Origin: Vulcanimicrobiota bacterium
Lineage (GTDB): Bacteria; Vulcanimicrobiota; Xenobia; Xenobiales; JADMJV01
Assembly (NCBI GenBank): GCA_050250895.1
Contig: JBFWNU010000001.1
Coordinates: 3,848,992-3,912,991, forward strand
DNA length: 64,000 nt
Direction: 5' to 3'
Position numbers and translations under genes: made by a program
Part shown: positions 10,269 to 16,227 of the stretch, in pieces
Layout: the number at the start of each line of letters is the position of its first letter
Position numbering within the stretch: position 1 is the first letter of the stretch
The notes under the pieces: generated by a model
Databases searched by the model: none
Told to the model about the DNA's origin: nothing
Seen by the model: only the letters and a program-made list of their open reading frames with translations

Positions 10269-11342
10269 CTAGTTAAACGACAACCCGTAGCGGTTGAAGC
10301 AATACATGGGCAGTTGCTGTTCGAGTTGCTCGAGCATCGCCCCCGGCAACTGGGTCTGCTCGGGATAGATGCAATGGGCCAGCTCAAGGCCCTGATAGAT
10401 GGTCTCGCCAGCGACGACGAATCGCTGCAGAGTCTGTTGGACGCGGCTCTTGATCACGGTGAGCATGGTCTCGATGTGGTCCTCGGGGGACTGCTCGGCC
10501 AGGATGATGACAAAGGTCTGCTCGTCGATGCGACCCAGCACGTCGCTGCCCCGAAGCAATCCGGCCAGGCGTCCAGCCGCGAAGCTGAGCACCCTGGGAG
10601 AGGCATCCGGTAGCGACACTCCGACCAGGGCTACTCGCTGGCGATAGCGCTGGGCTCGCTTGATCAACAAATCGAGCAAGTGGAACGTCAGAGCCCGGTT
10701 GGGAAGACCAGTGATGGGGTCGTCTAGTCGTTGCAGGGTTTCGTGGGCCAGATGAGCCTCGACCCGCGAGGCGCGTTCTTCGGCGGCCCGCACCCTTCGC
10801 TCGGCCAGTAACCATTCGCTCTCGGCCAGGTAGGCTCGCTCTTCCGCTGTCTCGACCTGGGCCTCGAGGTCGTTGGTGCGTTGGCGCGCTCGCGCCAATT
10901 GGGCTTCGGCTCGCCTCAGTTCCTCGTGTAGCTCTTCGCAATCCAGGCGAAGCAACAGCCTCGAGCTGGCTTCCTCCGCTTGCTCCTCGGCAAAGGCCAT
11001 GGCCTCGCGCACGTTCGCCCGGGCGTGATCAAGGCGCTCTTCCATCTCGCGAATGTGTTCTTCAAGACGCCTGGTCTGGGCTCGCGACACTTGCATCTCT
11101 TTGGCCGTGCAGTACGGCGTCAGGGTCACCAGGAGCGCCGGATTGCCGTCCCAATCGAACATCTGCAAGCGCACCTGTTCCTGGCCAAGGCGCGGCAACA
11201 CGGTGCCCGTCAACCTGCCCAACGGCTTGCCCAAAAAACTGGCCGCGGCGGGATTGGCATAGCGTATCTTTCGGGCTGCATCAACCACCATGACGGGGTC
11301 GGGCAGGCTCTCGAGAATGCGAACGGAGTCAGTCTTCTTCAT
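10269..11342 (-). CDS. PAS + coiled-coil + degenerate GGDEF protein
   Basis: ILESLPDPVMVVD..YANPAA PAS start; DPITGLPNR; active-site position reads GRIDEQTF. Confidence 0.8.
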   Translation of the reverse strand: MKKTDSVRILESLPDPVMVVDAARKIRYANPAAASFLGKPLGRLTGTVLPRLGQEQVRLQMFDWDGNPALLVTLTPYCTAKEMQVSRAQTRRLEEHIREMEERLDHARANVREAMAFAEEQAEEASSRLLLRLDCEELHEELRRAEAQLARARQRTNDLEAQVETAEERAYLAESEWLLAERRVRAAEERASRVEAHLAHETLQRLDDPITGLPNRALTFHLLDLLIKRAQRYRQRVALVGVSLPDASPRVLSFAAGRLAGLLRGSDVLGRIDEQTFVIILAEQSPEDHIETMLTVIKSRVQQTLQRFVVAGETIYQGLELAHCIYPEQTQLPGAMLEQLEQQLPMYCFNRYGLSFN

Positions 11343-12291
11343 CTCTAACCTCCCTCTTGCAACTTGAGGCCACCACTTCCATCAACTCTTTGCCGAAGGG
11401 GTCAACGAAGATATAGCGCTTGCAACCGCGGATGGTGGGTCGGGTGAGCATGTCTCCCACCAACGACCGGGTGCTGGCTTCGCCGGCCCTGTCCACCAGA
11501 CCGCGCACGCCCTCAAAGCGGTACTCTACCAGATTCCCTGAAGGCTCGCTAAGACGCACCGTCAGGCCCTTCGAGTTGCGTTCATAGCCTCGCAGTCGAC
11601 CCTCGTGCCCACTGCCGGTGAAATACTCGTGGGACGGTTCTACCTCGAGCGGCACATCGGGAGCATAGGCATCTTCAAAATGTAACTGGTGGTCGATGGG
11701 AGCGTTCTGGCGCTGACGGGCGATTTTTTCGTAGCGGCGCAGGGCGAGCCGGTTTTCGGGGCTGACGCGGACAAACTGTAGTCCGACCTTGAACAGGTTA
11801 CGCAGCCATTCTTTGCACCACACCACCTGGGCGCAACATTCGATGGGGGGCAAGCTGTCGACATCAAACTCCAGTCGCAGCAACACCGAGGCCCCGTGGG
11901 CCACTGCCTCGGGCAAGACCAGTTGCAGACCGCCCTGACTGAAGTCAAGGGTGTTGGTCCGATAGCCCGGCAGGTCTTTCGAAACCACGCAGAGTTGGCA
12001 TTCGACGCGTTGGTAGGCTCGCAAGGCGGTGTCGTCGTGCCCTGTCTGGCCCCAGGCTGGCAGAGGCTCGTTTCCCAAGAGCACTGCCACCAGGGCAAAC
12101 CCACCTCCGGTCAGGTTGCGGCAACTCTCGACGACCACTTGCATGGGGCGGGTGCGACTGGCATCGGGTAGATTGATGCGGACCATCAAGATCTTCCCGC
12201 GTGCGTAGAAGCGGTCCGACCGCAACACCAACAGTCTCTGTTCACCGTCGAGGTAGTCGACAACCGGACCGGCAAGAAAGTCTAAAAGCAT
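11329..12291 (-). CDS. PilZ domain protein
   Basis: RAYQR (RxxxR) and DFSQGG (DxSxxG) motifs; overlaps the downstream PAS-GGDEF gene. Confidence 0.85.
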   Translation of the reverse strand: MLLDFLAGPVVDYLDGEQRLLVLRSDRFYARGKILMVRINLPDASRTRPMQVVVESCRNLTGGGFALVAVLLGNEPLPAWGQTGHDDTALRAYQRVECQLCVVSKDLPGYRTNTLDFSQGGLQLVLPEAVAHGASVLLRLEFDVDSLPPIECCAQVVWCKEWLRNLFKVGLQFVRVSPENRLALRRYEKIARQRQNAPIDHQLHFEDAYAPDVPLEVEPSHEYFTGSGHEGRLRGYERNSKGLTVRLSEPSGNLVEYRFEGVRGLVDRAGEASTRSLVGDMLTRPTIRGCKRYIFVDPFGKELMEVVASSCKREVRDEED

Positions 12292-12484
12292 GATTGGTGC
12301 CCCTTCCGTCGATCGCCCTACCCAATTAACTTACCCCGATGTCCAAGATTTTACTCTGTTCGAAAGGAATCTTTTTCTCGAGGTAAGAATGAAGCCGGCT
12401 TTTTGGGTTGGCCTGGAACGGCGCTGGGTAGCGACGTGCCGGTCCGGCAGGAATAAGCCTGCCCCGTGTGCGACGTTACCCGCC

Positions 12485-13351
12485 ATGAAAAGATACCTTT
12501 TGCTGATGCTTACCACCCTCGGATTAGCGGCCATGGCCTCTCCTGGCGCCGGAAACGTCGAGCTGGCCGGGGTTCGCTGGCAATCCTGGGAAGAGGCTCA
12601 GGGGCGGGCCCGGCGCGAAGGCAAACCGATTCTGCTCTTTGATATGGTGGGGCGCCTCGACGAGCGCTGGTGCTGAACCAACGCACGCACCGTGAGGGCC
12701 GTGCTGCTCTCCGACACCAAAACCGCTCGCTATCTCGATGAACATTTCATCCTGGCCTGGAATAGCGTCAGGCCCGCTCCGAAAGTCAGGATCGACTTCG
12801 GCAACGGTAGGGTGCTCGAGCGCACCCTCAAGGGAAACACAGTGTTCTATGTTTGCAACAGCCAGGGGCGGGTCGTCGACGCTCTGCCCGGAGTCTATCT
12901 GCCCGGCGATTTCCGGGCCGAACTGGCGCAGAGCCTCGAGCTTTTGGCTCAGGACCCCGAACAGGTTCGTCGCCGTCACGACCAGGCTGGGGTCGCTATG
13001 GGAATGGCCATGGTCGGCAAGGGCTTCGTCGAGGCTCCACTTTTGCAGGCACTCGATGCGCCCGCCCACAAGACGGGCGCCATTCGCGACATCAGTGGCG
13101 AGCCCCATAGTCGGCAAGAGCTAGAAGCCTTGATCCCCGGCCAGGGCGAGTTGGCCGGGCGGGCGCTCCAGGCCGACTCGAAGGCCAGCCGCGAGGTCTT
13201 GCGCCCGGCCGCCCATCGTCTGTTGGCGGGGTTCTCGACCCTGCCTCGGCCGGAGGACTGCCGCCAGCAACTCTATCGCGACGTGCTCAAGGTGGACCTC
13301 GACGATCCGTATCTGGGCCTCAAGCTCGAGGGAATGCCCGGCACACCGTAA
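12485..13351 (+). CDS. Putative selenoprotein, SelN-like thioredoxin-fold, secreted (UGA 12674-12676 read as Sec)
   Basis: Signal peptide MKRYLLLMLTTLGLAAMA; WEEAQGRARREGKPILL thioredoxin-like start; TGG TGC TGA ACC AAC continues in frame into ORF 12692..13351. Confidence 0.82.
12683..12704 (+). promoter_or_regulatory. Candidate bacterial SECIS hairpin
   Basis: GCACG-CA-CC-GTGA-GG-GC-CGTGC stem-loop beginning 6 nt after the UGA, G-initiated apical loop about 15 nt downstream. Confidence 0.6.
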
Positions 13352-13382
13352 GGTTGTCGGCGCGTAATGTGAACCGAGTGCC

Positions 13383-13811
13383 TCAATCGGTTTCGCAGGC
13401 CAACAATTCGCCGCGGCCGTAGATGCCTTCTTCGACCATCAGGTAGCCGGCCTGAAGAAATTCAGGCTGGTCCTGGTCGATGCCCATCAAGATCAGGCTG
13501 TAGCCCTCGATGATCGAATCCAGACAGTCGTTCCAGCCTTGGGCCAGCTGGGGGAACTCGGCGAACGGGTTGTCGTGGACTTCCGCTTCCCACTCTTCGA
13601 GATCGGTGCGCAGCTCTTTCACGGTCTCTTCGCGGCTCTCTTCGCCGGTCATGAAGTCGTCGAGCAGCAGGCGCAACTCCTCGAGTGCGCTCTCGCGAGC
13701 CCCGTCGAGTTCCACTTCGAGATCCTCGGTGTCTAGTTCGTCGAGGTCAATCGGGGCCGGCTGCCAGGGGCTGCTGATCTCGATCTCGAGGCCGGTCTCA
13801 GGATCCAGCAT
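13383..13811 (-). CDS. Acidic helical hypothetical protein
   Basis: ATG with GAGGAG upstream; MLDPETGLEIEISS..., very D/E-rich. Confidence 0.75.
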   Translation of the reverse strand: MLDPETGLEIEISSPWQPAPIDLDELDTEDLEVELDGARESALEELRLLLDDFMTGEESREETVKELRTDLEEWEAEVHDNPFAEFPQLAQGWNDCLDSIIEGYSLILMGIDQDQPEFLQAGYLMVEEGIYGRGELLACETD

Positions 13812-14079
13812 CCTGGTTCTCCTCTTGTGGTTGCTGCTGCTGCTTGCGCTTGCGCTTGCGGCCGCGGCGTCTACGAGCCTTGCGTCCGGCCATGCGCTTG
13901 AGTTTGCGGGTCTCGACCAGTTTGCGCAAGAGCACGTTCTCGCGCTTGGGAACGCCCCGGGCGCCGCCGGCCTTCTTAGGGGTGGCCGTCTTCTTCTGGG
14001 TGGCAGTCTTCTTGGCCGCATCGGCTTCTTTGCCGTGCCGGACGTGGCCCGCGGGGTGGTGGCCACCAATCGAGGTCAT
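13798..14079 (-). CDS. Small highly basic hypothetical protein
   Basis: 93 aa, KKTAT repeats and RKARRRRGRKRKRK tract; stop overlaps start of the next gene. Confidence 0.6.
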   Translation of the reverse strand: MTSIGGHHPAGHVRHGKEADAAKKTATQKKTATPKKAGGARGVPKRENVLLRKLVETRKLKRMAGRKARRRRGRKRKRKQQQQPQEENQDAGS

Positions 14080-14188: not shown

Positions 14189-14638
14189 CTAGGGGGCGGG
14201 AATTTCTGGTTCCACCAGCCTGGCTAGATATTCCAAGGATTGTTGCCAGCCCAGGTAACATTGCTCAGCGGGAATGGCGGCCGGGATCCCTTCCTGGACG
14301 ATGTTGAGTTCGGTCCCGCAGCTGACGGCCCGTAGCTCGACCGTGGTGACCATCTCGCCTGGCAGATTGGGATCGTCGAATACATCGGTGTAACGGAGCT
14401 TCTCGTTGGGCACGAGTTCCTGATAAGTACCGCCGAAAGAGTGGCCGTTGCCGGTGGTGAAGTTACGAAAGGTCATGCGAAATTGGCCGCCCACCCGGGC
14501 CTCGAGCTTTTCGACCGAGCAGGTGAACCCGTGCGGAGGCAGCCAGCGAGCCAGCGCGTCGGGCTCGAGAAAAGCCCGGTATACCTTCTCGGGTTTGGCG
14601 GTCAGCACGCGATGTAGTTTTACAGTTCCAGTAGCCAT
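14189..14638 (-). CDS. SRPBCC/AHSA1-like (START-like) protein
   Basis: KLHRVLTAKPEKVYRAFLEPDALARWLPP...CYLGWQQSL; RBS AAGGAG. Confidence 0.92.
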   Translation of the reverse strand: MATGTVKLHRVLTAKPEKVYRAFLEPDALARWLPPHGFTCSVEKLEARVGGQFRMTFRNFTTGNGHSFGGTYQELVPNEKLRYTDVFDDPNLPGEMVTTVELRAVSCGTELNIVQEGIPAAIPAEQCYLGWQQSLEYLARLVEPEIPAP

Positions 14639-14825
14639 GGTTTGAGTCTCCTTTGTCTGATTAGCCCCTCCACCATGTGGTCGTTCGGCGAGCGGCTGGA
14701 TCGACATTCTCCGAAAGAAGGTGACTTCAAGGCAAGAACTCGAGACCGACGACCGACTTGCCGCCGGCCAACGGAGCAGACCAGGCGACCCGAGCCGGGC
14801 ACTTGTCCCGGCGTCGCAAAATGAA

Positions 14826-14910: not shown

Positions 14911-16227
<1,317 letters not shown>

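Follow-up and report, generated by a model that had tools for sequence, protein, structure and literature searches.

A probable exported thioredoxin-fold selenoprotein from a Vulcanimicrobiota bacterium, with a Cys-Sec site and a domain related to selenoprotein N

Vicinal pairs of cysteine and selenocysteine (Sec, U) are known from the C-terminal G-C-U-G redox centre of thioredoxin reductase, where the two residues can form a selenenylsulfide, and selenoprotein N (SelN) has been suggested to form the same bond at its S-C-U-G site. SelN was called animal-specific in an older survey (Lobanov 2007, PMC2375036), and its architecture, its S-C-U-G motif and its location in the lumen of the endoplasmic reticulum (ER) are described in PMC12839072. 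The subject of the present analysis is a 64,000-nucleotide stretch of the genome of a Vulcanimicrobiota bacterium (assembly GCA_050250895.1, contig JBFWNU010000001.1, positions 3,848,992 to 3,912,991), referred to as the window, in which two adjacent reading frames at 12485-13351 very probably constitute one gene for an exported thioredoxin-fold selenoprotein of ~30 kDa, whose internal UGA would be read by means of a hairpin at 12694-12711. The protein shares a catalytic domain with SelN and lacks its other parts.

The first open reading frame (ORF) begins with ATG at 12485 and ends in ...GRLDERWC-TGA, the TGA (12674-12676) lying immediately 3' of a Cys codon. Five open codons, ACC AAC GCA CGC ACC (T-N-A-R-T), bridge this TGA to a second ORF, which begins with GTG at 12692, leaves the frame unchanged and stops at TAA 13349-13351. 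That the two ORFs lie in one frame and are joined by these codons had been claimed in the original prediction and was confirmed on the sequence: the TGA is the sole interruption of the frame, the read-through product has 288 residues with C63-U64, and the two "hypothetical" ORFs are one gene.

12485-13351, plus strand: complete predicted selenoprotein gene, 288 codons plus TAA, with Sec as codon 64; a single open frame upon TGA read-through.
12671-12676, plus strand: predicted active-site dipeptide, TGC (Cys63) followed by TGA (Sec64).

By eye, no AGGAG-like run is visible in the 15 nucleotides preceding GTG 12692. Standard pipelines do split the gene, as had been anticipated: what lies 3' of the TGA appears in the public calls as unnamed proteins (P0002, P0126; 216 and 219 amino acids). 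A promoter and terminator scan of 12200-13500 gave no match, and a tRNA scan of the whole window found none.

The first line of evidence on the meaning of the TGA is its distribution among homologs. A six-frame search of 60 relatives revealed an ortholog in nine (E values from 7e-84 to 3e-55), each match holding exactly one TGA; the extracted frames read L-D-E/Q-x-W/F-C-[TGA]-T-N-A-R-T/I-V/L-R-A-V-L-L-S/F-D, the alignments span the protein from the signal-peptide Met to the C-terminus, and an in-frame stop sits shortly upstream of the start Met. When a profile built from Cys forms only was run over 401 genomes of the phylum, ten matched, including the window genome, all with one TGA. In a wider survey of 185,579 species genomes, 373 stretches were found to encode relatives, of which 80 were kept. 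Ser-Cys (Cys codon TGC or TGT) occupies both active-site columns in 75 of these 80 loci, TGA is found in the remaining five, and other residues in none; the Cys:Sec ratio is biased, since S-C was part of one of the two patterns used for the scan, whereas the lack of any other residue is unaffected. The five TGA loci belong to named metagenome-assembled genomes (MAGs) of Planctomycetota and Obscuribacterales, and the residue preceding the TGA is Cys in three of them (one with His-Cys) and Thr in two. A natural Cys-Cys homolog also exists (P0021, 328 amino acids).

Taken over all genes of the T-N-A-R type (the window gene, nine relatives and five MAGs), the column is TGA in 15 of 15. Codons U+1 to U+4 encode T-N-A-R in all 15, while their third positions vary, Ala being spelled GCA, GCG, GCC or GCT; the so-called intergenic linker is thus under purifying selection as translated sequence. 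Since the TGA recurs in 14 other genomes, it is not a sequencing error, and the residue alternating with it, for which the original prediction had allowed Trp or another non-Cys residue as a contrary outcome, is Cys and never Trp or any other.

Were the UGA a true stop, the locus would hold a short exported-peptide gene and a separate gene starting at GTG 12692, or else a decaying pseudogene. Public gene callers annotate P0002 and P0126 in just this way, and the downstream hairpin has no Rfam match. The comparative data speak in the opposite direction: 14 other genomes retain the TGA, with the amino acids on either side of it strongly conserved, the five linker codons change at synonymous positions, and a stop at this position would split a thioredoxin-like domain that is continuous in the homologs, with Cys at the column. 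As for a pseudogene, one exact stop would not persist across lineages that lie as far apart in the tree as Planctomycetota and Obscuribacterales. We consider termination at this codon extremely improbable.

The second line of evidence is an RNA element located within the coding sequence downstream of the UGA, a candidate selenocysteine insertion sequence (SECIS).

12694-12711, plus strand: candidate SECIS; 6-bp stem (12694-12699/12706-12711) with the loop CGUGCU (12700-12705), starting 17 nt after the UGA.

Across 21 Sec-form genes, 125 of 126 cells of this stem (99.2%) form standard pairs, and four of the six pairs are changed on both sides; neither any of 500 shuffles, in a control that ignores the relatedness among the genes, nor any slid register comes close. 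Among the compensatory changes are G-C to C-G, coupled with a Ser-to-Cys exchange in the protein, G-C to A-U, and A-U to C-G, which goes together with Ser-to-Ala and with AGA becoming CGA. By comparison, the same register is only 44% paired in the 75 Cys-form homologs, with at most four of six pairs. Synonymous variation is frozen in 12695-12703 (codons +7 to +9), where Arg is AGG or AGA, Ala is GCC and Val is GTG and nothing else, unlike the Arg at +4, which lies outside the hairpin and is CGN in 14 of 15 genes; a few positions before the hairpin, these amino acids are spelled with many codons. Codons +7 to +9 thus clearly show an RNA constraint overlaid on the coding constraint. In isolation, the 12694-12711 hairpin is predicted to fold at -10.3 kcal/mol.

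A different, overlapping stem-loop, 12683-12704, had been proposed in the original prediction. It is the minimum-free-energy (MFE) fold of the window RNA, yet its z score against shuffles is -0.19; over the 21 genes it is 76% paired, and its counts of pairs changed on both sides and of pair types are no better than those of shuffled sequences. The expectation of a stem-loop after the UGA therefore stands, whereas the conserved element is the overlapping hairpin, and 12694-12711, not 12683-12704, is the functional SECIS candidate.

The third line of evidence is the decoding machinery. The assembly that contains the window (9.5 Mb) was searched for tRNA-Sec, selA, selB and selD, which the original prediction had named as genes to be looked up, and all four were found above curated cut-offs. 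The tRNA-Sec scores 73.3 bits, above the Rfam cut-off, and is also reported by ARAGORN as tRNA-SeC with anticodon tca; selB, selA and selD score 383, 517 and 358 bits, respectively. The three protein genes are adjacent.

G000:C1:698421-702633 (loci L008, L016 and L018), all on one strand: selD-selA-selB cluster.

The selD gene itself holds one in-frame TGA, as in SelD of the selenocysteine type, so that at least one further gene of this genome appears to depend on Sec decoding. A candidate SECIS, GGAGC-AGGUGCU-GCUCC, begins 26 nt after the selD UGA; it resembles the hairpin of the window gene, with which it has the run GUGCUGCUC in common, and differs in its distance from the UGA (26 versus 17 nt). 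Judged by its gene content, yes, the organism should be able to decode UGA as Sec.

A further alternative is that a near-cognate tRNA (for Trp, Cys or Arg), and not Sec-tRNA, decodes the UGA, with the hairpin as the stimulus. Downstream hairpins in general can stimulate read-through, and the stem-loop by the UGA of animal SEPN1 stimulates read-through at UGA as well as at UAG (PMC2248747). Against this, the genome keeps the full Sec machinery together with a selenocysteine-type SelD, Cys alone alternates with TGA at the column, a pattern typical of Sec, neither Trp nor Arg occurring there, and the hairpin, which is restricted to TGA forms, carries G-U in its apical loop, comparable to the bacterial SECIS loop consensus. 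We regard near-cognate decoding as very unlikely. Because the TGA is kept, Cys is the only residue exchanged for it, the hairpin is specific to the TGA forms and the Sec machinery is complete, we read the UGA as Sec and hold, with high confidence, that this would be a genuine Sec-decoded gene.

The encoded protein can be divided into three parts.

12485-12538, plus strand: probable signal peptide of the general secretory (Sec) type, residues 1-18, with a basic MKR, a hydrophobic core and A-M-A before S19; read by eye.
12551-12961, plus strand: predicted thioredoxin-like domain, approximately residues 23-159, related to the C-terminal domain of SelN.
12962-13348, plus strand: predicted C-terminal domain, largely helical, with the conserved D-D-P-x-L-G-L at its end.

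In all ten aligned orthologs, the N-terminus is basic and then hydrophobic, and several have a Cys right after the hydrophobic core, as in lipoproteins; the window protein is thus presumably exported.

Its relation to SelN was assessed with P0125, a 564-residue protein of the sea star Patiria miniata that UniRef names "EF-hand domain-containing protein". P0125 has an N-terminal hydrophobic anchor (by eye), an EF-hand (Pfam) and an S-C-U-G-type motif; it stands in for SelN by architecture, not by name, and its Sec column is printed as C, so that U is not distinguishable there. Residues 30-102 of the window protein align with P0125 in BLASTP at 36% identity over 73 ungapped residues (pairwise E = 2e-10), placing C-U on C-C/U. 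Alignment of the window-family profile with a SelN-type profile by hhalign gave 98.3% and E = 1.7e-14 over 108 columns, corresponding to window residues 27-134. Outside these residues no alignment between the window protein and SelN was obtained, the middle domain of SelN (approximately 130-400 in P0125) having no counterpart, and Pfam, which detects an EF-hand in P0125, detects none in the window protein.

The likenesses thus concentrate on one domain. In both proteins a thioredoxin-like domain carries a Cys just before the Sec column; both would reside in oxidising extracytoplasmic compartments, the ER lumen in the case of animal SelN and probably the cell envelope in the case of the window protein; and the animal mRNA has a stem-loop just 3' of the UGA, the redefinition element (SRE), as does the window mRNA. 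The active-site motif W-C-U-T-N-A-R agrees with S-C-U-G-S-G-R only in C, U and the Arg at U+4. The Arg residues at U+4 and U+7 are invariant in the window family and correspond to R466 and R469 of human SelN, whose substitution causes SEPN1-related myopathy (PMC12839072, PMC3541580). There are also differences: the window protein lacks the transmembrane anchor, the EF-hand and the ~270-residue middle domain of SelN, it has its own, different C-terminal helical domain, and Sec insertion would be directed by a bacterial hairpin within the ORF, whereas animal SelN has a SECIS in the 3' untranslated region. The likeness to SelN, to which the original prediction had pointed, accordingly holds for the thioredoxin-like domain, homologous by BLASTP and hhalign, and does not extend to orthology, the rest of SelN being missing. 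Because the window family shares only this domain with SelN, it is a sister family with the SelN catalytic domain and not the SelN ortholog. A SelN-type gene was not found in the window genome with the single query P0124.

Such SelN-type genes do occur in relatives. Weaker matches of the six-frame search led to genes with the motif L-N/D/T-D-Q-S-C-[TGA]-G-S-G-R-T/S-L-R-A-G-L-L in genomes G001 (same genus as the window genome), G007 and G009.

L031:1246-2439, minus strand, genome G007: SelN-type gene.
L033:234-1352, minus strand, genome G001: SelN-type gene.
L035:718-1941, plus strand, genome G009: SelN-type gene, one of two tandem copies.
L035:1973-3220, plus strand, genome G009: SelN-type gene, the other tandem copy.

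Their products combine an N-terminus like that of lipoproteins with the middle domain of SelN; P0122, one of these products taken as read through (397 residues), recovers P0125 from among 5.8 billion proteins at E = 3.9e-25 and 83% coverage, and aligns with it over the middle domain as well. Like the window gene, they have the TGA in this column, an N-terminus of the lipoprotein or signal kind and a hairpin, GAGAGC-AGGUCU-GCUCUC, in the same register 17 nt downstream; unlike the window protein, their products carry the SelN middle domain and lack the D-D-P-x-L-G-L domain. A third TGA type, found in genome G040, reads D-x-R-C-[TGA]-P-G/A-G...R-A-V-M-L-C-D, continues into ~300 residues of unrelated C-terminal sequence and keeps the register of the hairpin, whose closing pair is a compensatory C-G.

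L032:1246-2526, plus strand, genome G040: third TGA type.
L036:206-1366, minus strand, genome G040: third TGA type.

The Cys counterpart of the window family is a family of ~440 amino acids with S-C-A-N-S-R at the active site, present in Acidobacteriota, Verrucomicrobiota, Planctomycetota, Cyanobacteriota and Myxococcota. It is homologous to the window protein over both domains and 33-36% identical, with Cys on the Sec column; it differs in having Ser for the vicinal Cys, ~100 additional N-terminal residues and no hairpin. The window protein aligns over its full length with 12 S-C-A-N-S-R and T-N-A-R members, with 35 invariant columns including D-D-P-x-L-G-L, and reaches database E values down to 1e-38 with full-length Cys forms. 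In a profile search of 1.84 billion cluster representatives (50% identity), 2347 sequences of the Cys branch were found at E <= 0.001, 1096 of them at E <= 1e-30; sequences P0128-P0277 are listed for this branch. For the bacterial SelN type, P0125 and two Cys forms, Pfam and NCBIfam gave no family save the EF-hand of P0125, and the Cys form P0032 matched only "hypothetical protein" clusters in the ESM Atlas. A maximum-likelihood tree was computed from 55 rows, namely 15 Sec forms, P0021 and 39 Cys forms, the latter drawn from odd-numbered loci with at least 250 residues and no X, with even-numbered Cys loci left out. It is divided by a split with 100% support in the Shimodaira-Hasegawa-like approximate likelihood ratio test (SH-aLRT) into a short clade (the 15 Sec forms, including the window gene, and P0021) and a Cys clade with the extra ~100 N-terminal residues.

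The occurrence of one hairpin in one codon register in three paralogous Sec families suggests that Sec and SECIS predate their divergence. The exported superfamily built on the SelN domain might then comprise at least three Sec branches, W/F-C-U-T-N-A-R, S-C-U-G-S-G-R (bacterial SelN) and R-C-U-P-G/A-G, and the SelN catalytic domain might be of bacterial origin, with Sec and an in-ORF SECIS as the ancestral state, the Cys forms derived and the animal SEPN1 element a relic of the bacterial SECIS; we put this forward tentatively, as a scenario that we rate as rather unlikely. Within the redefinition element of animal SEPN1, the codons hit by disease mutations are U+1, U+4 and U+7 (PMC3541580, PMC2248747). 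Codon U+7 belongs to the 5' arm of the bacterial stem.

Known families place the protein only roughly. Pfam reports Thioredox_DsbH (PF03190, residues 29-89, spanning the UGA) and Thioredoxin_7 (PF13899), both weak (20.3 and 13.6 bits, under the Pfam threshold of 27), and the NCBIfam DsbH model scores 14.9 against a cut-off of 190. No model of NCBIfam release 20.0 fits the window protein, its many curated selenoprotein models included, and a sequence search of the PDB gave chance-level matches only. The natural Cys-Cys homolog P0021 was modelled with AlphaFold as a proxy, from a 77-row alignment; its model has a mean predicted local distance difference test (pLDDT) score of 79, and above 90 over the core, and follows the order strand, helix, strand, a loop with C73-C74 at its end, helix 75-85, another four or five strands and helices. 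Since C73-C74 directly precede helix 75-85, the Sec/Cys column would lie at the N-terminus of the first active-site helix, where the nucleophile of thioredoxin-like enzymes sits. The best matches of the model in the PDB are 3f9u (a DsbD-like exported domain), 7tkv (Thioredox_DsbH), AGR2/AGR3, DsbD-gamma and the UAS domain of UBXD7. Thioredox_DsbH/Thioredoxin_7, 3f9u, 7tkv, AGR2/AGR3 and UAS may share with the window protein the subclass of the thioredoxin-like fold; the weak sequence matches cover the strand, active site and helix, and no PDB match of the model reaches E <= 0.001. In distinction to Thioredox_DsbH and Thioredoxin_7, the window protein has no C-x-x-C, its putative redox pair being the vicinal C-U. 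Adjacent Cys-Sec is likewise found in the G-C-U-G end of thioredoxin reductase and in SaoL, SaoC, HgcA, MbdU and KCU-star, which are listed in a May 2026 review of prokaryotic selenoproteins, but the folds and contexts of thioredoxin reductase and of these bacterial CU selenoproteins are unrelated to those of the window protein, and none of the NCBIfam models of SaoL, SaoC, HgcA, MbdU and KCU-star matches it at E <= 1.

Residues ~160-288, helical in the P0021 model, contain the invariant D-D-P-x-L-G-L and have no relatives known outside the family; no match was found for this domain in Pfam or NCBIfam. In the alignment of 12 members, its invariant positions are K179, E183, D231, Y264, D274, P275, L277, G278 and L279.

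The gene product could function in the following manner: During translation, the 12694-12711 hairpin, with G and U in its apical loop, would recruit SelB-GTP-Sec-tRNA(Sec), and the UGA at 12674-12676 would then be read as selenocysteine instead of as a stop. The protein, exported by its Sec-type signal peptide, would act in the cell envelope. Sec64, beside Cys63 at the N-terminal end of the first helix, would occupy the nucleophile position of thioredoxin-like oxidoreductases and, by analogy with these enzymes, may, as a selenol-based oxidoreductase, attack disulfides or sulfenic acids, the oxidised cysteines of a client. In the T-N-A-R clade, the intermediate could be resolved by Cys63 through a vicinal selenenylsulfide, and the C-terminal helical domain would probably supply the recognition of clients or partners. 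For the specific assignment of Sec64 as nucleophile and Cys63 as resolving residue we see the chances as evenly balanced.

A protein of this kind could be a selenoprotein and nevertheless not a general thiol oxidoreductase: it may be a periplasmic sensor or accessory of a two-component system, or a binder of metals or chalcogens. By raw count, 27 of 89 family loci have a histidine kinase, an OmpR-type response regulator or both within 3 kb; these neighbours, found in Planctomycetota, Verrucomicrobiota, Acidobacteriota and Myxococcota, are often directly downstream on the same strand (examples among L048-L127 are L069, L075, L099, L103, L105, L110 and L125). In the wider family one Cys suffices, with no partner to resolve it, AGR2/AGR3, which are single-Cys proteins that bind clients, are among the nearest PDB folds, and no function is assigned to the large conserved C-terminal domain. 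The window gene and its nine orthologs, by contrast, have no two-component neighbour in the flanks examined; moreover, two-component genes are common and OmpR-type regulators all cluster by BLAST, so that the association may be partly chance. On balance, a sensor or binder seems unlikely to us, and an oxidoreductase in the cell envelope remains the role we favour for this protein.

Several points weigh against the reading of 12485-13351 as a SECIS-dependent redox selenoprotein. With regard to the hairpin, the shuffle control disregards the common descent of the genes; the stem has only 6 bp, and a lower extension, tried in two registers, is conserved in neither; in L060, one of the TGA-form MAGs, the register is shifted by 2 nt and the loop is a CGUG tetraloop; and since the hairpin overlies the highly conserved coding sequence for R-A-V-L-L-S, part of its conservation is protein-driven. 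Rfam, applied with gathering thresholds to the whole window and at E <= 10 to 12640-12780, reports no SECIS family, its sole match in the latter interval being a chance sRNA (E = 0.23). Among the sequencing runs looked up for the window stretch, no RNA run is listed; the seven runs are all of DNA, each with 5-9% of the words. With regard to the protein, the structure is that of P0021, which is 36% identical to the window protein, and its fold matches in the PDB are weak (best E = 1.4e-3, TM score about 0.55 on the target). The vicinal Cys is variable, being Thr in two of the 15 T-N-A-R-type genes and Ser in Cys-form homologs; given the Thr-Sec or Ser-Cys of sister genes, it is not essential to the chemistry of the family, which weakens the selenenylsulfide as a general mechanism. 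The indispensable group would be the single Sec or Cys, with the vicinal Cys as an accessory. The function proposed for the window protein is drawn by analogy, and the neighbouring PilZ, GGDEF/PAS, AHSA1 and S-adenosylhomocysteine hydrolase genes (other strand) give no hint at it.

With these reservations, we take the T-N-A-R gene to represent a selenoprotein family that is in all likelihood real and absent from the catalogues, and that belongs to the SelN-domain superfamily of thioredoxin-fold proteins. A review of May 2026 tabulates 119 prokaryotic selenoprotein families, among which there is no SelN-like or thioredoxin-like C-U family of this kind. A full-text literature search, whose coverage did not extend to supplementary candidate lists (BSepDB, 2016 Planctomycetes S9 Table), found nothing linking SelN to bacteria, and SelN and Planctomycetes are both absent from the main text of the BSepDB paper, which has its family list in the supplement. 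The family, for which there is no Pfam or NCBIfam model, has thus been overlooked by present catalogues and annotation models, with the consequence that genomes of the lineage carry a mis-split gene and an under-counted selenoproteome.

The significance of the family would be threefold: (i) the catalytic domain of human SelN, itself poorly understood, appears to have simple exported relatives in bacteria, in Sec and Cys versions, which are tractable proteins for studying the chemistry of the C-U site and the disease-linked arginines; (ii) the hairpin common to three paralogous Sec families constitutes a natural data set for SECIS covariation within coding sequence and offers a link, open to testing, with the redefinition element of animal SEPN1; (iii) in the Cys branch, which comprises ~2,300 clusters at 50% identity and has no name in any of the sources consulted, a candidate active-site Cys is now pinpointed.

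In the window, the gene stands alone between two minus-strand genes. Upstream and divergent from it lie a PilZ-domain gene (11329-12291, minus strand) and a PAS/GGDEF gene (10269-11342, minus strand), a cyclic-di-GMP signalling pair; downstream follow an ORF of 228 amino acids (13383-14069), an AHSA1/SRPBCC gene (14189-14707) and a gene for S-adenosylhomocysteine hydrolase (14911-16212).

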